Positions 6,622 through 32,310 of a DNA stretch of 33,655 nt are shown piece after piece. The position numbers were made by a program, and so were the translations under genes. The notes beneath the pieces are model-generated. The model searched no databases, was not told the DNA's origin, and saw only the letters and a list, made by a program, of their open reading frames with translations. The DNA comes from Chiloscyllium plagiosum (taxonomy: Eukaryota), in contig NW_025214201.1 of assembly GCF_004010195.1 (NCBI RefSeq), positions 1-33,655 of the forward strand, written 5' to 3'. The stretch's first letter is position 1; every line of letters begins with the position of its first letter.

Positions 6622-6963
6622 GGCGCAGTGGTTGCCAATGGTTACCACTGCTGCCTCACAGCGCCAGGGCCCAGCTTCAATTCCAGCCTTGGGTGATTGT
6701 CACTGTGGAGTTTGCATGTTTTTCCTGTATCTGTATGGGACACACTGGTTTCCTACCACAGTCCAAAGATGTGCAGGTTGGGTGGATTCACCGTGCTAAA
6801 TTGCTCATAGTATCCAAGGATGTGAAGGCTAGGTGGATTAGCCATGGGAAATGCAGAGTTACAAGGATGGGTTATGGAGGTGGGACTGTGTGGGATGTTT
6901 CTCAGAGGATTGGTGTGGACTCGATAGGCAAAAAGGCTGACTTCTACACTGTAGGGATTCTAT
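6622..6963 (+). mobile_element. HE1/V-SINE-like tRNA-derived SINE
   Basis: tRNA-like head, central gtggagtttgcatgtt...cagtccaaagatgtgcagg domain, tail acactgtagggattctat. Confidence 0.85.
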
Positions 6964-8842: not shown

Positions 8843-9048
8843 CAGGTCATTATGTGATAATGTTGCATTCCTCTCCAACTCCTCACTATAGAAAACAGCT
8901 GTAGAAAATCATGTTGTACATGATCATGATAGAAAATTGCTATACCCGTTCAGTAGGAAGCCCAAGTTATCCAAATAACGTCCACAATCCATCAATCGCG
9001 TTACAGCCAATTTGTGTTAATGAGACGTGGGTTATTACCAGAATGGTT
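8843..9048 (+). mobile_element. Tigger/pogo-like MITE, decayed copy
   Basis: TA|caggtcatt start; internal similarity to 9280-9479 (gctatacccgttcagtag). Confidence 0.65.
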
Positions 9049-9279: not shown

Positions 9280-9479
9280 CAGGTCGTTCTGCTGTAATGC
9301 GACAACTGCGTTCCTCACCAACCTCTCTATACAAAATTGTGCTGTAGAAGATCACTCATTGAAAATCGCTATACCCGTTCAGTAGTAAGTTTGTGTTGTG
9401 CAAACAACATCCACAATTTGTCAGTCGCGTTGGAGCTCATTCATGCTGATGAAACACATGTTTATAGCAGAATGACCTG
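9280..9479 (+). mobile_element. Tigger/pogo-like MITE
   Basis: TIRs caggtcgttctgctgtaa / ttatagcagaatgacctg, preceded by TA. Confidence 0.8.
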
Positions 9480-9837
9480 AACTTAGATTTCCAAAGCCAT
9501 TGAAAAGGTGCTACGTCAATGGCTACAGTGGAAAATAAGAACTTATAGTGTAGGGAGACAATAACAATGTGGATAGAGGATTAGTTAGCCAGCAGGAAAC
9601 AAGAATCAGTCATTCTCAAGTTGTTAAGATGTGACAAATGGAGTGCAACAGATCAATGCTGGGACCTCAGCTACTTAAAATTAATATGAATGATTTGGAT
9701 GACAGCAATTACATGTTCAATTTTAAGTTTGTTGATCATACAATGATAGGAAAATGAGTTGTAAAGAAAACATAAGGAATCTGCAAGGGATTCAAATAGG
9801 CTGTGAGCGGACAAAAATCTGGTGTACTGAAAATACG

Positions 9838-10037
9838 AGGAGAAAGTAAGGACTGTAGGTGCTGGAGATCAGAGCTGAAAATGTGTTGCTGGAAAAGCGC
9901 AGCAGGTCAGGCAGCATCCAAGGAACAGGAGAATCGACGTTTCGGGCATAAGCCCTCTTATGCCCGAAACATCAATTCTCCTGTTCCTTGGATGCTGCCT
10001 GACCTGCTGCGCTTTTCCAGCAACACATTTTCAGCTC
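9838..10037. mobile_element. Fold-back insertion derived from a Penelope-like element end
   Basis: 83-bp inverted arms 9870-9952 / 9957-10039; 15-bp direct repeat tgtactgaaaatacg on both sides; arm matches the end of the GIY-YIG-bearing copy at 31.1 kb. Confidence 0.85.
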
Positions 10038-10129
10038 TGTACTGAAAATACGTCAAATTGTCCACTCTGAGTAAATAGAATAGCCTTGATTGTCACATAT
10101 ACTCAATGAGGATAGTGAAAAGTTTTATA

Positions 10130-12540
10130 TAGAGTCATAGAGATGTACAGCATGGAAACAGACCCTTCGGTCCAACCTGTCCATGCCGACCAGATATCCC
10201 AACCCAATCTAGTCCCACCTGCCAGCACCCGGCCCATATCCCTTCAAACCCTTCCTATTCATATACCCATCCAAATGCCTCTTAAATGTTCCAATTGTAC
10301 CAGCCTCCACCACATCCTCTGGCAACTCATTCCATACACGTACCACCATCTGCGTGAAAAAGTTACTCCTGAGGTCTCTTTTCTATCTTTCCCCTCTCAC
10401 GCTAAACCTATGCCCTCTAGTTCTGGACTCCCCGACCACACGGAAAAGACTTTGTCTATTTATCCTATCCATGCCTCTCATAATTTTGTAAACCTCTATA
10501 AGGTCACCCCTCAGCCTCCGACGCTCCAGGGAAAATAGCCCCAGCCTGTTCAGCCTCCTCCCTATAGCTCAAATCCTCCAACTCTGGCAACATCCTTGTA
10601 AATCTTTTCTGAACCCTTTCAAGTTTCACAACATCTTTCCGAGAGGAAGGAGACCAGAATTGCATGCAATATGCCAACAGTGGCCACAACATGACCTCTC
10701 AACTCCTGTACTCAATACTCTGACCAATAAAGGAAAGCATACCAAATGCCTTCTTCATTATCCTATCTACCTGTGACTCCACTTTCAAGGAGCTATGAAC
10801 CTGCACTCCAAGGTGTCTTTGTTCAGCAACACACCCTAGGACCTTACCATTAAGTGTATAAATCCTGCTAAGATTTGCTTTCCCAAAATGCAGCACCTCG
10901 CATTTATCTGAATTTAACTCCACCTGCCACATCTCAGCCCATTGGCCCATCTGGTCCAGATCTTGTTGTAATCTGAGGTAACCCTCTTCGCTGTCCACTA
11001 TACCTCCAATTTTGGTGTCATCTGCAAACTTACTAACTGTACCTCTTATGCTCGCATCCAAATCAGTTATGTAAATGACAACAAGTAGGGGACCCAGTAC
11101 CGATCCTTGTGGCACTTCACTGGTCACAGGTCTCTAGTCTGAAAAACTAGACTACCACCACCACCCTCTGTCTTCTACCTTTGAGCCAGTTCTGTATCCA
11201 AATGGCTAGTCCTCCCTGTATTCCATGAGATCTAACCTTGCTCATCAGTCCCCCATGGGGAACCTTGTCGAACGCCTTACTGAAGTCCATATAGATCACA
11301 TCTACCGCTCTGCCCTCATCAATCCTCTTTGTTACTTCCTCAGAAAACTCAAGTTTGTGAGACATGATTTCCCATGCATAAAGCTATGCTGACTATCCCT
11401 AATCAGTCCTTGCCTTTCGAAATACATGTATATCCTTTCCCTCAGGATTCCCTCCAACAACTTGCCCATCAATGACGTCAGGCTCACTGGTTTATAGTTC
11501 CCTGGTTTGTCCTTTATGCCCTTCTTGAACAGAGGCACCACGTTAGCCAACCTCCAGTCATCCGGCACCTCACCCGTGACTATCGATGATACAAATATCT
11601 CAGCAAGAGGTCCAGCCATCACTTCTCTAGCTTCCCAAAGAGTTCTCGGGTACACCTGATCAGGTCCTGGGGATTTATCCACCTTTACCGGTTTCAAGAC
11701 ATCCAGAACTTCCTCCTCTGTAACAGGGGCAGTTTGCAAGATTTCACCGTCTATTTCCCTACAGTCTATATCTTCCATATCCTTTTCCACAGTAAATACT
11801 GATGCAAAATACTCATTTAGTATCTCCCCCATTTTCTGCGTCTCCACACAAAGGCCGCCTTGCTGATCCATGAGGGGCCCCATTCTCTCCCTAGTTACAC
11901 TTTTGTCCTTAATGTATTTATAAAAACTGTTTGGATTCTCCTTAATTCTATTTGCCAAAGCTATCTCATGTCCCCGTTTTGCCCTCCTGATTTCCCTTTT
12001 AAGTATACTCCTACTTCCTTTACACTCTTCTAAGGATTCACTCGATCTATCCTGTCTATATCTGATATGCTTCCTTCTTTTTCTTAACCAACCTCTCAAT
12101 TTCTTTAGTCATCCAGCATTCCCTACACCTACCAGCCTTTCCTTTCACCCTAACAGGAATATACTTTCTCTGGGTTCTTGTTATCTCATTTCTGAAGGCT
12201 TCCATTTTCCAGCCGTCCCTTTACCTGCGAACATCTGCCCCCAATCAGCTTTTGAATGTTCTTGCCTAATACTCAAAATTGGCCTTTCTCCAATTTAGAA
12301 CTTCAACTTTTAGATCTGGTCTAACCTTTTCCATCATTATTTTAAATCTAATAGAATTATGGTCACAGACCCCAAAGTGCTCCCCCACTGACACTTCAGT
12401 CACCTGCCCTGCCTTATTTCCCAAGAGTAGGTCAGGTTTTGCACCTTCTCTAGTGGGTCCATCCACATACTGAATCAGAAAATTGTCTTGTACACACTTA
12501 ACAAATTCCTCTAAACCCTTAACACTATGGTAGTCCCAGT
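10130..12540 (-). mobile_element. Relatively young 5'-truncated CR1 (HER1-like) LINE with frameshifted ORF2
   Basis: ORF pieces with KSPGPD, NYKPVSLTS, DFSKAFDKV, VPQGSVLGP, KFADD; 3' tail at ~10130. Confidence 0.95.
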
Positions 12541-12917: not shown

Positions 12918-13369
12918 GTTCATTCACAGGATGTGGGTGTCACAGGCTGTGCCAGCATTCATTATCTATCCGTAGTTACCCAGAGGGCAGTTAAGAGTCA
13001 TCAACACTGCTGTGGCTCTGGGGTTATGGATAAGCCAGACTGGGTAAGAAGGCAGCTTTCTTCCCTAACGGGCATTAATGAACCAGATGGGTTTTTCTGA
13101 CTATCAACAATGGTTTTGTGGTCATCACAATTCCCGCCTCAGGCGACTGACTGTGTGGAGTTTGCACGTTCTCCCCGTGTCTGCGTGGGTTTCCTCCGGG
13201 TGCTCCGGACCAGATGGGTTTTTCTGACTATCAACAATGGTTTTGTGGTCATCATTAGATTCGCAATTCAAATACCCCCATCTACTGTGGCGAGATTTGA
13301 ACCTGGGTTTGCAAGACATTACCTGGATTAATAGTTGACCAGTAATATCACTAACCCATCACCTCCCCC
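12918..13369 (-). mobile_element. tRNA-derived SINE (second family), interrupted by an insertion
   Basis: Minus-strand head ggggaggtgatgggttagtg...ggttcaaatc; tail resembles the 3' end of the LINE at ~30.2 kb. Confidence 0.75.
13128..13208 (+). mobile_element. Internal fragment of an HE1-like SINE between perfect 46-bp direct repeats
   Basis: Near-identical to 23348-23427; flanks 13082-13127 and 13209-13254 are identical. Confidence 0.9.
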
Positions 13370-16966: not shown

Positions 16967-17153
16967 GGGTGGCATGATGGCTAAGTTGTTAGCACAACTG
17001 CCTCAGCATCAAGCACTGGGATCAATTCCAGCCTGAGGTCACTGTGTGGAGTTTGCATGTTCTCCCCATGTTTGTGTGGGTATCAGTTGTGTGCTCTGGT
17101 TTCCTCTCACAGCCCAAAGATGGGCAGGTTAGGTGGATTAGCCATAGGAAATT
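16967..17153 (+). mobile_element. HE1/V-SINE-like SINE, 3'-truncated
   Basis: Head and central domain present. Confidence 0.8.
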
Positions 17154-17774: not shown

Positions 17775-17845
17775 AGGAGAAAGTGAGGACTGCAAATGCT
17801 GGAGAGTCACTGGAAAAACACAGCAGGTCAGGCAGCATCTGAGGA
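17775..17845 (-). mobile_element. Short terminal fragment of a Penelope-like element
   Basis: aggagaaagtgaggactgcaaatgctggag...cagcaggtcaggcagcatc. Confidence 0.75.
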
Positions 17846-18187
17846 TCTCTCCTTAAACCTATGCCCTCTAGATTTGGACTCTGTTCTCTTCCCCCCCCGC
17901 CCCACACCCCCCAAACCTAATAAAAAGACCTTGGCTACTCATCCTATCCATGTCCTTGAGCTTCTAATGCAAGGAGGAGAAAACAAAAACTAGCCTTTTT
18001 GGCCTTTCCCTATAACTCAAACCCTACAGTCCCAGCAACATCCTTTATAAATCTTTTCTGCATCCTCTCAAGTTTAACAACATCCTCCCTATAAGAAGAG
18101 TGACCAGAATTAGAAGCAGTGTTCTAAAAGTGGCCCAACCAATGTCCTGTACACTACAACATTATGTCCTGACTGCTATACTCAATG

Positions 18188-18401
18188 CTGAAGATGTGTT
18201 GCTGGAAAAGCGCAGCAAGTCAGGCAGCATCCAGGGAACAGGAGAATCGACATTTCGGGCATAAGCCCTTCTTTCCTGAAGAAGGGCTTATGCCCGAAAC
18301 GTCGATTCTCCTGTTCCCTGGATGCTGCCTGACCTGCTGCGCTTTTCCAGCAACACCTTTTCAGCTCTGATCTCCAGCATCTGCAGTCCTCACTTTCTCC
18401 T
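18188..18401. mobile_element. Penelope-like fold-back insertion, opposite orientation to the 9.8-kb copy
   Basis: 87-bp arms 18187-18273 / 18279-18365; flanking direct repeat ctgctatactcaatg at 18173-18187 and 18400-18414. Confidence 0.85.
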
Positions 18402-19789
18402 GCTATACTCAATGTTCTGACCAATGAAGGCAAGCATGCCAAATGTCTTATTCACCACCCTAGCTATCTGGGACTCCACTTTCAAGGAACTATGCACCTC
18501 CACCCCCATGTCTCTTAGTTTTACAACATTCCCCAGGGACCCACCATTAAGTGTGTAAGTCCTGCCCTGGTTTACAACAAAATGCAACACCACACATTTA
18601 TCTAAAATAAACTCCATCTGCCGCTCCACAGTCCATTGGTCCATCAGATCAAGGTCCCAGTGTACTCTGTGATGATAATCTTCACTGTCCACTACACCAC
18701 CGATTTGCTGTCATCTGCAAACTTACTAATCATGCTTCCTATATTCACATCCAAATCATTTATTATATAAATGATGAAAAGCAGTGGACCAATCCTTGTG
18801 GCACACTGCTGGTGACATACCTTCAGTCTGATAAACAACTCTGTACCATCACTCTCTGTCTCCTACCTTGTCTAATTGGCTAGTTCCTTCTGTGATATAA
18901 CCTTACTAACCCGTCCGCCATACGCAGCCTTGTTGAATGCTTTGCTGAAGTCGATATAGACAATGTCTTACCGCATTGCCATTATCAGTCTTCTTTGTTA
19001 CCTCTTCAAAAACCTCAATCAAGTTAGTGAGACATGATTTCCCATGCACAAAGCCATGTTAACTATCTCTAGTCAGTCCTTGTCTCTCCAAATGCATATA
19101 GATCCTGTCCCTCAGAATCCCATTCAACAGCTTACTCACTGGTCTGTAGTTCCCTGGCTTTCTTTGTCGTGTTTCTTAAATAATGGCACCACAGTAGTCA
19201 ACCTCCAGTCTTGTCAACCTCCAGTCTTATCGCACCTCCCCCCAGCTGTCATTGATATCTCAGCAAAGGGCCCAGCATTCTCTTGCCAGCTTCCCATAAA
19301 GTTCTGGGAAAACCTGATCTGATCCTGGCACCTCCTCTTCTGTAATATGAACTATTTTCAAGAAATCACTTTATTTCCCCAAGTTCCCTCATTTCCTTGT
19401 ACTTCTCCACAGTAAATACTGATATGAAAGTCATTTAGTATCCTATCCATTTCCTGTGGTTCAATACATAGACAGCCACATTGATCTTTAAGCCCTATTC
19501 TCTCCCCAGTTACTCTTTTTCCCTTAATATACTTACAGAATTTATGGCATGAATAAAGGTGAGTGGCTATGATCTTACAGCCATTACAAGGACATCAAAG
19601 CTTGGATGTAAACATACAACGGTATGTGCCTTTTCGAGAAGACGGAGAGAAGGAAAATGTGGCAGGGTGGCATTTTAATATAGAATGGAATTAATGCAAT
19701 AGAAAAATGATCATCGATCAGAAGATGTAGAATCTATGTGGATGAAAGTAATAAAGGGAAAGAGACACTGATGGGAGTAGTTGACAGGA

Positions 19790-20140
19790 CCAGGTGGCTC
19801 AGTGGTTAGCACTGTTGCCTCACAGCGCCAGGGATTCAGGTTCGATTCTAACCTCTGGCGACTGTGCAAACCCCACACTGACATTCTCCCTGTGTCTGTG
19901 TGGGCTTCCCCCCCAGGTTCTCTGGCTTCTTCCCACAATCCAAAGATGTGCAGGTTAGGTGAATTGCCCATGCTAAATTGCCCATCGTGTTCAGGGATGT
20001 GTAGATTAGGTGCATTAGTTAGGGGTAAATAGAAGGTAGGGGAATGGGTCTGAGTGGGTTACTCTTGAGAGGGACGATGTGGACTTGTTGGACCGAAGTG
20101 CCTGTTTCCATGCTATAGGGATTTGTGATTTTATGATTCT
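19790..20140 (+). mobile_element. HE1/V-SINE-like SINE
   Basis: A box ggctcagtgg, B box ggttcgattc, CR1-like tail. Confidence 0.9.
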
Positions 20141-23295: not shown

Positions 23296-23601
23296 GGGTG
23301 GCTCAGTGGTTAACACTGCTGCCTCATAGCACCAGAGACCCAGGTTCGATTCCAGCCTCGGGTGACTGTCAGTGTGGAGTTTGCACATTCTCCCTGTGTC
23401 TGCGTGGGTTTCCTCCGGGTGCTCCGGTTTCCTCCCACAGTCCAAAGATGTGCAGGTCAGGTGAATTGGCCATGCTAAATTGCCCATGGTGCTAGGTGCA
23501 TTAGTCAGAGGGAAATGGGTCTGGGTGGGTTACTCTTTGGAGGGTCAGCGTGGACTGGTTGGGCCGAAGGGCCTGTTTCCACACTACAGAGAATCTAATC
23601 T
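23296..23601 (+). mobile_element. HE1/V-SINE-like SINE, well preserved
   Basis: Intact A/B boxes, central domain and tail gggccgaagggcctgtttcc. Confidence 0.92.
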
Positions 23602-26115: not shown

Positions 26116-26255
26116 TTGTTTTAAGGTAATAGGTTATGGTGAAGTCCACACTTTACTGACTAAGCAAAATTTGTTCCTTTTGTGTTTTTAAGACTCAAAT
26201 TAGTGTGAAATGTGAGTGGCATAAGTTGTCAGCTATCAAACTAACTATGACTAAG

Positions 26256-26495
26256 GCAAAAATGAAACCAAGAACTGCAGATGATGGAGATCTGAAACAA
26301 ACAAAAATTTAAATTGCTGTAGAAACTCAGGAAGCCTGGCAGCATTTGTGGACAGAAAAGGGAGTTGACGTTTCGAGTCCAGACACCCTTCTTCAAAACA
26401 GTTCAAAAGAAGTGTCACTATCCTCAAAATATTAACTGTTTTCTTTTCACAGATGCTGCCAGATCTCTAATTTCTCCAGTAATCTCTGTTTTTGG
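26256..26495. mobile_element. Older fold-back remnant of a second Penelope-like family
   Basis: aactgcagatgatggagatc start; imperfect arms ctggcagcattt / agatgctgccag. Confidence 0.65.
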
Positions 26496-26977
26496 TTGAC
26501 TGTGGCAACTTCTTTTTGTGTGCTGAATTTTCCAAGCTTATTCAGAAATGTGTGGTCATGGTTTGATTGACACTAGTGATTTGAAATGTTGATACACTTT
26601 GATCTCCTTATGAAAACTGGCATCTCTGTGCTTAACAGCCAATTCTTAGGCATGCCACCACCACCAAAAATGCATATTTCTATGGGGATATTTTTCCTGA
26701 GAAGGTTTAGCTGCTGTTTCATCTTTTTGTCCTTTTCTTTGACATTTCTCTTTTTTTTCAGTTGTTATTGATCAACATTTTAGATTCTATATTCTTGTTA
26801 AATAATTTCTGCCTGTAGATTTATTGCATTTTATAATCATCTATTATGTATCTTTGTAATAGATCAATAACCTGTTAAACATTTAAAATCTGAATAAAAC
26901 TTTCATTTTAAAAAATCAGCCTTATTAATCATAGGCTATTTTGTAGAACATTTCAGTTTCTATGATAAATGTTTCCA

Positions 26978-27260
26978 TCAGTGGTTAGCACTGCTGCCTC
27001 TCAGTGCCAGGGACCTGGGTTTGATTCTAGCCTCTGGCAACTGCCTGTGTGGAATTTGTACATTTTCCCCATGTCTGAGAGGGTTTCCTCCGGGCGCTCC
27101 AGTTTCCTGCCACAGCCCAAAGATGTGCAGATTAGGTGCATTAGTTGGAGTAAATATAGAGTAATAGGGTAGGGGAATGGGTCTGGGTAGTATACTATTC
27201 GGAGGGTTGGTGTAGATTTGTTGGGCCAAATTACCTGTTTCCGCACCGTAGGGATTCTAT
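26978..27260 (+). mobile_element. HE1/V-SINE-like SINE
   Basis: Head, central domain and tail; 12-bp flanking direct repeat. Confidence 0.9.
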
Positions 27261-29672: not shown

Positions 29673-30000
29673 ATGGTGGCTCAGTGGTTAGCACTGCTGC
29701 CTCACAGCACCTGGGACCCAAGTTTGATTCCAGCCTCAGGTGACTGTGGGGAGTTTGCATATTCTCCCAGTGTCTGTGTGGGGTTCCTCTGCATGCTCTG
29801 ATTTCTAACCATAATCCAAAGATGTGCAGGTTAGGTGGAACACTCATGCTAAATTGCCCATAGTGTCCAGGTATGTATAGGTTAGGTGGATTAGTCATGG
29901 GAAATGCAGGGCTGCCAGGATAGAGTAGGGAGGTCAGTCTGGGTGGGATGCTCCTTAGAGAATCGGTGTGGCCTGTTTCTGCACTATAGGGATGGTGTGA
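29673..30000 (+). mobile_element. HE1/V-SINE-like SINE nested in the LINE 3' region
   Basis: Head, central domain and tail. Confidence 0.9.
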
Positions 30001-30490: not shown

Positions 30491-31069
30491 ATGTATATTC
30501 ATCAAGGTGCAGTGGAACTAACATTAAAGCAAGATACATTAAAGAATTGTTCAGACTTATAAAATATACAAATATATTTAGAAAACTAGTAACCTTGTTC
30601 TGTTTTATACACTTGTAATTTACTGGAGAAACAAAATTATAATATGTGACCGACCATTCAATTATGATGAAAATATATTTTAATTCAGAAGAGAATCATT
30701 GTTTAAGGACACTGAAAATTAGACTGTCATTCCCAGATGCAATTCTAATGATCTGTGTAAATACAGAGTTCATATTTGTTTATTCAGCACAGAAATTAGA
30801 TTTTAAAAGGTCAAAGAAATTACAGGAAGGTGCCGACCAGTGTGTATAGAGTGAGATGTGATGGTGAACAATCATAATTGTGATATTATCATTCTTGGTT
30901 AAGAAGGGGAAAATTATGCTGATTGTTTCAAAATGCTGATTCTGATTGGCTCTACTTTCTCATAAGTCTATGTGAATCTATTAATGGCAATATCCTGATC
31001 AGACAGAGGTGTACATCTGTCAGGAGGTAATCCACTGTGTACCTTAGGCTTAATAGACTGATTTGAAGT

Positions 31070-31580
31070 TTGAGTCGAAAAGCGTGGTGCTGGAAAAAGC
31101 ACAGCAGGTCAGGCAGCATCCGAGAAGCAGGAGAGTCGATGTTTTGGGCATAAGCCCTTCCTCAGGAATGTGAGGCTGAGAGATAAATAGGAAGGTGGGT
31201 GCGTGGCTGGGGGAAGTAGTTGGGAAAACAATGGGTGGATGCGGGTGGGGACAGATTGTGATAGGTTGGTTGGGAGGATGGAACGGATAGGTGGGAAGGA
31301 AGATGGACAGGTAGGACAGGTCAAGAGGGTGGTGCCGAGTTGGAGGGTTGGATCTGGGATGAGGTGGAGGAAGGGGAGATTTGGAAACTAGTGAACTTCA
31401 CATTGATGGTATTGTGGTTGAAAAGTCCCAAGGCAGAAGATGAGGCATTTTTCCTCCAGTTGTCGGGTGGCTTGGATTTGGCAGTGCAGGAGGCCCAGGA
31501 CTTGCATGTCCTTGGTGGAGTGGGAAGGGGTGTTGAAGTGGTTGGCCACAGGGCTGTTGGGTACGTGTGTTGGCATTGGT
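31070..31580 (-). mobile_element. Penelope-like retroelement 3' fragment with GIY-YIG endonuclease C-terminus
   Basis: PVANHFNTPSHS...RQLEEKCLIFCLGTFQP, then a pyrimidine-rich UTR and the terminal repeat unit. Confidence 0.85.
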
Positions 31581-31659
31581 AATTGCTTCTAAGTTGATGA
31601 TGTTTGGTAATCTCATATGTTTTTATACAATTTTATTAAATACTACTGGTTCTTTTCTA

Positions 31660-32310
31660 GAGATAAATGCGAGGTGCTGCATTTTGGGAAAGCAAATCTC
31701 AGCAGGACTCATACACTTAATGGTAAGGTCCTAGGGAGTGTTGCAGAACAAAGAGACCTTGGAGTGCAGGTTCATAGCTCCTTGAAAGTACAGTTGCAGG
31801 TAGATAGGATAGTGAAGAAGGCATTTGGTATGCTTTCCTTTATTGGTCAGAGTATTGAGTACAGGAGTTGGGAGGTCCTGTACTCAATACTCTGGGCTGG
31901 GGCTGTTTTCCCTGGAGCGTCGGAGGCTGAGGGGTGACCTTATAGAGGTTTACAAAATTATGAGTGGCATGGATAGGATAAATAGACAAAGTCTTTTCCC
32001 TTGGGATCGGGGAGTGCAGAACTAGAGGGCATAGGTTTAGGGTGAGAGGGGAAAGATATAAAAGAGACCTAAGGAGCAACCTTTTCACGCAGAGGGTGGT
32101 ACGTGTATGGAATGAGCTGTCAGAGGATGTGGTGGAGGCTGGTACAATTGCAACATTTAAGAGGCATTTGGATGGGTATATGAATAGGAAGGGTTTGGAT
32201 GGATATGGGCCAGGTGCTGGCAGGTGGGACTAGATTGGGTTGGGATATCTGGTCGGCATGGACAGGTTGAACCGAAGGGTCTGTTTTCATGCTGTACATA
32301 TCTATGACTA
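31660..32310 (+). mobile_element. Young CR1 3' fragment with internal deletion
   Basis: DKCEVLHFG, LRGDLIEVYKIM, FTQRVVRVWNEL; very similar to the reverse complement of 10130-10908. Confidence 0.95.

Follow-up and report, generated by a model that had tools for sequence, protein, structure and literature searches.

A stretch of 33,655 nucleotides from Chiloscyllium plagiosum, referred to below as the window, carries a hammerhead motif that is real, in an element and an architecture of an already described kind; the reading in which cleavage shapes the copies is not supported. Judged from its sequence, the region 18188-18399 is the published "inverted pLTR plus tail" pattern of Penelope-like elements (PLEs), and the motif at 18276-18308 appears to fit the minimal hammerhead of these elements. 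The hairpins of these copies do not turn at the predicted cleavage position but 5' of it, and cleavage is probably not what determines the turn. The insertions are, with somewhat more confidence than doubt, explained as the 3' end of a PLE terminal repeat, in which uncleaved RNA would be copied to the 5' edge of the motif and the new DNA would then be folded back on itself.

Hairpin and single-arm insertions

The window is repeat-rich animal DNA. A search with nhmmer, based on the aligned arms, detected eight arms in five insertions within it, and nothing further below E 0.7. In three of the five insertions a 5'-truncated copy is accompanied by an adjacent, inverted, head-to-head one, and all three hairpins show a one-sided tail together with a duplication, the outer end of one arm being 32-40 nt longer.

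The insertion at 18.2 kb is 212 bp long (18188-18399) and is made up of two head-to-head arms, with a 35-nt extension on one of them and a flanking 15-bp target duplication, whose left copy (18173-18187, + strand) is identical to the right one (18400-18414, +). The short inverted arm (18188-18273, -) begins at hammerhead position A6, lacks a tail and is 95.4% identical to the long arm (87 nt). The long arm (18273-18399, +) is a pLTR 3' end, running from stem I position 2.3 to the tail end, and it shares its own 3' end with the copies at 9838 and 17775; the tail itself (18365-18399, +), of 35 nt, or 37 when the 2 nt shared with the duplication are included, is found in the long arm only. A LINE paralog at 15131-14868 (-) is colinear with the flanks of the insertion and has space for a single copy of the duplication.

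The second hairpin, of the same subfamily, spans 9838-10039, with a long arm on the - strand from position 9.1 (9956), a short arm on the + strand from 10.4 (9957), a tail of 32-34 nt and an exact 15-bp duplication (9823-9837 and 10038-10052). The two are 95.8% identical and their junctions differ; a base common to both arms at 18.2 kb differs from that found in both arms at 9.9 kb. The third hairpin (26260-26496) is old and belongs to a second family, 72% alike to that of the 9.9- and 18.2-kb copies (family 1). Its long arm runs on the - strand from 26399 and its short arm on the + strand from 26400, with a tail of about 40 nt and a probable 12-bp duplication (26248-26259 and 26497-26508), whose match at 10 of 12 positions is equalled in 36 of 1500 random window pairs.

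The two remaining insertions are single arms, at both of which a target duplication was sought and none was found. A 5'-truncated PLE copy at 31071-31576 (-), whose ends are approximate, contains a GIY-YIG C-terminal remnant (31570-31424), a pyrimidine-rich UTR, a decayed hammerhead and the short 3' end, without tail. A tail-bearing stub at 17775-17845 (-) starts about 12 nt 3' of the predicted cleavage position C17, and has neither hammerhead nor inverted arm; it contains a 16-nt internal gap and sits in a LINE fragment. An earlier note, made from the sequence alone, had spoken of three hairpins; three do exist (9.9, 18.2 and 26.4 kb), although the 31.1-kb copy is a single arm.

Other classes were considered for these insertions. 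An assembly artefact is ruled out by the 2-4 differences between arms in the young copies, by the duplications and by the empty-site paralog, and a DNA transposon or MITE by the asymmetric ends, the differing centres and the link to a GIY-YIG ORF. As a microRNA precursor, the hairpin gave a mir-680 match of 30 bits, to be compared with a cut-off of 104.

Several other repeats are present in the window. A SINE-like repeat with a tRNA-like head, which we take to resemble the shark HE1 family, occurs in seven copies (6636-6957, 13130-13208, 17021-17153, 19793-20121, 23297-23592, 26972-27254 and 29675-29974). Two LINE fragments, presumably CR1/L2-like, at 10133-10909 and 31661-32309, are 94% alike and lie in opposite orientation 21 kb apart, and further LINE fragments are located at 14.9-15.5 kb and 17.6-19.1 kb. 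A 117-nt direct repeat (8929-9045 and 9358-9474) is 73% alike over a distance of 429 nt.

The hammerhead motif

On the + strand, 18276-18308 reads CUGAAGA-A-GGGC(UUAU)GCCC-GAAAC-GUCGAUUC. The corresponding sequences are CUGAGGA-A-GGGC(UUAU)GCCC-AAAAC in the 31.1-kb copy (-; C3 at 31165) and UUGAAGA-A-GGGU(GUCUGG)ACUC-GAAAC-GUCAAC in the 26.4-kb copy (-; position 3 at 26396); all three were re-read as the earlier note had quoted them. On the basis of the sequence, a position table and the features described in PMC4209133, a putative minimal type I hammerhead was delimited at 18273-18308 (+), comprising the 5' strand of stem I (18273-75), CUGAAGA (18276-82), a bulged A (18283), stem II (18284-95), GAAA (18296-99), C-G-U (18300-02), the predicted cut after C17 (18303) and the 3' strand of stem I (18304-07).

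The earlier note had been unable to assign either an NUH site or a canonical stem I, and both can be placed. The triplet GUC (G16.2-U16.1-C17, 18301-18303), immediately 3' of GAAAC, fits the former, and in family 1 the pairs C2.1-G1.1, U2.2-A1.2 and A2.4-U1.4 form the latter. Three of four stem I pairs are thereby present; at 2.3/1.3, where U faces U or C, the bases do not match, and the lowest-energy fold predicted for the monomer lacks this helix I pairing. In the 26.4-kb copy, the short arm has a stem I of five pairs. Between the two families one compensatory change is seen in stem I (2.1-1.1, C-G to U-A) and one in stem II (10.4-11.4, C-G to U-A), 10.2-11.2 being altered on one side. With regard to the covariation for which the earlier note had proposed to look, this is one change per stem in two lineages only, a sample without statistical power.

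The box C3-U-G-A-N-G-A9 is intact in the 18.2-kb long arm and in the 31.1-kb copy; position 3 is U in the 26.4-kb long arm, while the box is decayed in the 26.4-kb short arm and cut off in three of seven arms. G12-A13-A14-A15.1 is present in five of seven arms, G12 being replaced by A in the other two. The base between 9 and 10.1 and the pair G10.1-C11.1 are found in all six arms that reach this point. Helix III is missing, and ACGU (palindromic, 15.1-16.1), followed by C, is retained in three of seven arms, namely the three long ones; the remaining four carry C-to-T or G-to-A at the CpG within ACGU. Three CpG sites fall in the catalytic core at 18295-18304 (11.1-12, 15.2-16.2 and 17-1.1), and the losses of core bases across arms are mostly C-to-T or G-to-A at these sites.

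A scan of both strands of the window for YUGANGA-stem-GAAA gave three exact matches, two of them with a stem of at least 4 and one bulged base. In 60 dinucleotide shuffles the latter class was matched 0.2 times on average and at most twice, the number also seen in the window, so that the core plus stem II pattern is by itself weak evidence, only modestly above chance. This control covers that pattern alone; both matches (18276, +; 26396, -) run on as C-G-U-C, that is C15.2, G16.2, U16.1 and C17. The motif is convincing because the rest fits too: this continuation, the lack of helix III, ACGU, the bulged base and G10.1-C11.1. No hammerhead family was among the five Rfam matches obtained up to E = 5.

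Folding of the 18.2-kb copy gave a predicted hairpin of -163.9 kcal/mol, compared with -124.7 when the hammerhead is enforced. A read-through transcript of this copy is thus predicted not to form the ribozyme, and with the hairpin favoured by a predicted 39 kcal/mol the copy would be unlikely to work as a ribozyme in the host. Dimer formation through ACGU was tried by folding two molecules; the dimer with both stems II reached -18.9 kcal/mol and an alternative duplex -21.9, leaving it unsupported.

Relation to Penelope-like elements

The link made by the earlier note to PLEs and their minimal hammerheads is borne out by a GIY-YIG remnant upstream of the motif, by the core features and by the architecture of the unit. 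The remnant (31570-31424, -) matches the C-terminus of protein P0001 in tblastn (75.5% over 49 aa, E 1.9e-17), and its single protein match is named from Chiloscyllium punctatum (76% identity). P0001 is an RT-thumb/GIY-YIG protein, its GIY-YIG match being weak (E 0.0046) and below the cut-off; its long relatives contain RT, PF26215 and, in part, GIY-YIG domains. Pfam gave no match for the 66-aa window fragment alone. Close relatives carry a CX2-5CxxC linker, assigned to the Neptune and Nematis clades (PMC8557442); P0001 keeps only the CxxC half, and the linker region is absent from the window. The copies are truncated, only 49 aa of the window match P0001, and no autonomous RT-EN ORF lies between tandem pLTRs.

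At 18322-18402 (+), ATGCTGCC, invariant in all eight arms of both families and located 19 nt after C17, is a candidate ORF start; in the long arm at 18.2 kb it opens a frame of 27 codons that reads through the end of the tail. The frame found no match among 95 proteins, nor among 242 proteins. The arrangement resembles that of Adineta, where pLTR plus tail contains the first 12-22 codons (PMC3846280). In the 31.1-kb copy, a pyrimidine-rich stretch (31176-31260, -; 74%) ends in YAG 11 nt before C3 and may be a splice acceptor. As a lead only, it can be compared with Drosophila virilis, where the start precedes by 46 bp an intron that ends at helix I (PMC2377424, PMC4209133). For an intron ending just before stem I, no skip joint with both splice ends is found among the joints listed (15 of 846) from the sequencing runs described below.

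Turning points and the cut site

The arms start at 2.3 and A6 in the 18.2-kb hairpin, at 9.1 and 10.4 in the 9.9-kb one and at 2.3 and 2.4/2.5 in the 26.4-kb one, corresponding to 30, 24, 20, 16, 32 and 33-34 nt upstream of C17. All six hairpin arms, each starting 16-34 nt 5' of C17, cross the scissile bond, so that a 5' end cut by the ribozyme cannot be their boundary. Mapping the loops relative to the motif, a check put forward in the earlier note, places the turns of all three hairpins at or inside its 5' half; clustering of this kind, within 17 nt, has a probability of 0.002-0.017 when any of four truncation models is assumed (n=3).

The further suggestion of that note, that the motif sets the RNA end, is not supported as far as cleavage is concerned, both because of the six arms crossing the cut and because of the insertion of uncleaved RNA in vitro by PAc, Poseidon of Anolis carolinensis (Frangieh et al. 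2024, PMC11167929), for which uncleaved RNA is described as the dominant substrate and hammerhead catalytic mutants as leaving insertion unchanged. That the motif sets where RT folds back is possible. The turns lie at the 5' edge of the motif, which RT reaches only after traversing the structure. The 5' boundary is not absolute, the 31.1-kb copy running about 400 nt upstream of the motif and the 17.8-kb stub stopping 12 nt downstream of C17.

Copies in sequencing runs

Three shark-like DNA runs (contigs; organisms A, B and C) and one RNA run (raw reads) were aligned to 31040-31660 at 80% likeness, yielding 61510, 64848 and 86438 records for DNA and 2616 for RNA. The RNA run, X21, is a single-cell polyA library, of which about 2 in 100 were read and which cannot map 5' ends; the lack of a site where many of its molecules start or stop counts, given the library type, neither way. 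Depth drops 8-11-fold from the motif bin to the adjacent upstream bin, a figure confounded by poor upstream alignment. With the best upstream bin as reference, depth in the motif bin is higher by factors of 1.9, 1.4 and 2.0 in the DNA runs and 9.5 in the RNA reads, and in the tail bin by factors of 7.5, 7.2, 7.9 and 17.8, respectively, contig depth not being equal to copy number. Short 3' pieces are in excess, and depth leaves the boundary unfixed. At the loose ends found at 31160, the family sequence (majority core CUGAUGA) is kept to about 31169 and is heterogeneous beyond (agreement 0.33).

Breakpoints at 31168-31172 recur in the runs. Among the joints listed (15 of 846), the opposite-strand ones are 31134|31168 and 31134|31169, supported by 2, 3 and 8 contigs in the three DNA runs (13 in total) and by one RNA read. 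They link one end of stem I (1.4) to the other (2.3/2.4), a joint used by none of the three window hairpins. Depth suggests that the tails of such joints point outward; if so, the joint is the expected trace of priming by a DNA mirror of stem I. In run X12, two low-depth joints link 31169 or 31172 to 31137 (G1.1, adjoining the predicted cut), and these may be tandem copies with an end at that cut.

Of 1353 raw reads, 914 carry G12, as does 49-55% of the contig depth; both G12 and G16.2 are kept in about half of the contig depth and two thirds of the raw reads, a partial loss as expected from CpG decay of dead copies. A 33-nt motif pattern had no matches in metagenome contigs, and the 28 metagenome matches to a 21-nt pattern, none of which extends beyond 32 nt, were taken as chance; a pattern scan of viral contigs gave no match.

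Origin of the inverted arms

In the explanation preferred here, a staggered cut left the 15-bp duplication, a step seen in the sequence. By analogy with PAc, the RT of the element would prime at the nick and start about 96 nt downstream of C17, at the tail end; the copy passes C17 and the whole core, as the arms show, so that the template was uncut there. RT would halt at or just short of the 5' strand of stem I, where the template likely begins, and we infer that the RNA itself may begin at stem I. The 3' end of the cDNA would re-prime on itself through 0-3 nt of chance or stem-derived pairing, with a different junction each time, and the second arm would be attached at the other nick, stopping about 35 nt earlier than the first one. 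The hammerhead would mark the turn by lying at the front of the copied unit, not by cutting.

The differing junctions of the two nearly identical young hairpins fit a second arm made anew at each insertion, and the base common to both arms of each fits a single template, an argument weakened by the fact that such a base could also stem from a common source locus or from gene conversion. The excess of short 3' pieces in the tail bin and the loose ends at 31160 were counted in favor. Counted against were the two of five insertions that are not hairpins, the motif bin lying only 1.4-2.0-fold over the best upstream bin in the DNA runs, and the early end of the short arm, 32-40 nt, which folding back leaves unexplained. 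The 26.4-kb loop of 0-1 nt and the 9.9-kb junction without a shared base are also poorly explained by simple fold-back priming. Arkhipova et al. (2013) argued instead for self-priming on an antisense template (PMC3846280).

Twin priming, in which both nicked strands prime RT on uncleaved RNAs, at a long site (with tail) and a short one, both copies reach the front of the RNA and their 3' ends are joined head to head without any folding back, is a possible explanation, if a distinctly less probable one. It accommodates blunt junctions and loops of 0-1 nt, it explains the one-sided tail together with the tight loops better than folding back does, and the single-arm copies end where hairpin arms do, the 31.1-kb copy at the short end and the 17.8-kb copy at the long one. 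PAc, moreover, cleaves and extends both strands, with a predicted dimer, and the tail is the gap between its two RT starts (PMC11167929). Against it stand the copy-specific base carried by both arms of each young hairpin, which two RNAs from one locus would also produce, and the term itself, which was not found in the papers among the matches listed. Mere coincidence or ascertainment, with random turns among short 5'-truncated copies and with longer palindromes lost from the genome or the assembly, has very little probability, the least of all the readings weighed here; n is 3, the motif covers about 40% of a 95-nt arm, Rfam gave no match and the pattern alone was equalled by shuffles (maximum 2 in 60), but three turns within 17 nt (p 0.002-0.017, four assumed models), a structural turn position shared by two families 72% alike and the recurrent breakpoints at 31168-31172 argue otherwise.

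A turn set by the structure of the motif, with fold-back primed by a cDNA mirror of stem I or by a stall of RT on the folded, protein-bound motif, is unlikely. The opposite-strand joints among those listed (15 of 846) do coincide with the two ends of stem I, and the 9.9-kb turn falls at the 5' edge of stem II; the joint is nevertheless seen in none of the three window hairpins, it comes from the family with the worse stem I (mismatch 2.3/1.3), it was picked out among 15 joints of 846, its geometry is inferred, and a few amplified copies could yield the depth. An RT stall is expected 3' of a structure, and none of the window hairpins turns there. Self-cleavage after C17, setting the RNA end and hence the turn, is very unlikely. 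The core is intact in the 18.2-kb long arm, the complementary stem I strands allow 31134|31168 to be read as two annealed copies, one of cut RNA (from G1.1, 31137) and one of uncut RNA, and 31137 is a breakpoint in two joint rows from a single run (low depth, joint kind not given); yet all six arms extend 16-34 nt past the cut, minimal hammerheads of metazoans show poor cleavage in vitro (PMC4209133), and PAc RNA-seq is described without reads beginning or ending at the site, with catalytic mutants inserting normally (PMC11167929). It is doubtful, if a little less so than a turn set by structure, that hammerheads of PLEs do a second job beyond catalysis, in which stem I would either prime the turn through its DNA mirror or join copies of cut and uncut RNA.

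What PLE hammerheads do and how the inverted pLTR arises are both open questions (PMC11167929, PMC8557442), to which this locus contributes one clear negative, namely that its copies do not turn at the cut site. The abundant short insertions of sharks could serve as a natural library of junctions for distinguishing fold-back from twin priming, and, if the hammerhead did have a second job, hundreds of thousands of them would record PLE second-strand synthesis and the purpose of the ribozyme. In a literature search lying mostly outside subscription papers, no work was found on PLE hammerheads of sharks or on the inversion junction relative to the motif; the single match that brought sharks together with Penelope and the hammerhead ribozyme means a shape by the word "shark" (PMC6155905).

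Comparison with known systems

Minimal hammerheads were described in the pLTRs of metazoan PLEs by Cervera and De la Pena (2014, PMC4209133), as motifs that lack helix III and carry an ACGU palindrome through which dimers can form, one base separating 9 from 10.1, and the pair G10.1-C11.1; sharks are not named in the available part of that survey. The window motif shares with them the CUGANGA and GAAA boxes, the 9/10.1 base, G10.1-C11.1, the lack of helix III, the palindrome and a putative short helix I, and its copies are likewise mostly solo and truncated, with opposite-strand pairs 100-700 bp apart in the survey. It differs in a helix II of 4 bp, compared with 7-8 bp in the motifs of S. mansoni, in the internal mismatch of helix I in family 1, and in that two motifs meet here at the inversion point.

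In the unit of EN+ PLEs, an inverted pLTR lies adjacent, a tail of about 31 bp is present on one side and the duplication is short (PMC3846280, PMC8557442, PMC8969392), a one-sided tail of 30-40 bp being also described (PMC8557442); the junction position relative to the hammerhead is not given in the accessible portions of PMC3846280 and PMC8557442. Head-to-head inversion, a tail of 30-40 nt at one end only and a short duplication are all found in the window insertions, which, unlike that unit, are about 200-240 bp long without an ORF and have duplications of 12-15 bp, compared with 8-10 bp in Adineta.

Non-LTR retrozymes, known as tandem forms and reported in one chondrichthyan (bioRxiv 10.64898/2026.07.22.740005), are, like the window insertions, non-coding and PLE-derived, with a type I hammerhead. 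As described there, they are direct tandem repeats of at least two hammerhead units, whereas the window contains inverted, one-off insertions with differing junctions. Membership in this class was rejected, no tandem units being present and all eight nhmmer arms being single or inverted.

In PAc, the ORF begins within the hammerhead and reverse transcription is initiated internally, 111-118 nt into that ORF; the tail lies between two such start sites, and each DNA strand is cleaved and extended. The portions of the study available do not deal with inverted products (PMC11167929). Differences from PAc concern the ORF, which starts there inside the hammerhead while the candidate start lies here 19 nt after C17, and the Neptune-type cysteine linker carried by relatives of the window family. 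Common to both are a hammerhead about 60-100 nt upstream of two 3' ends, an uncleaved template and an AT-rich target, and the window arms that cross the cut agree with the insertion of uncleaved RNA by PAc (PMC11167929).
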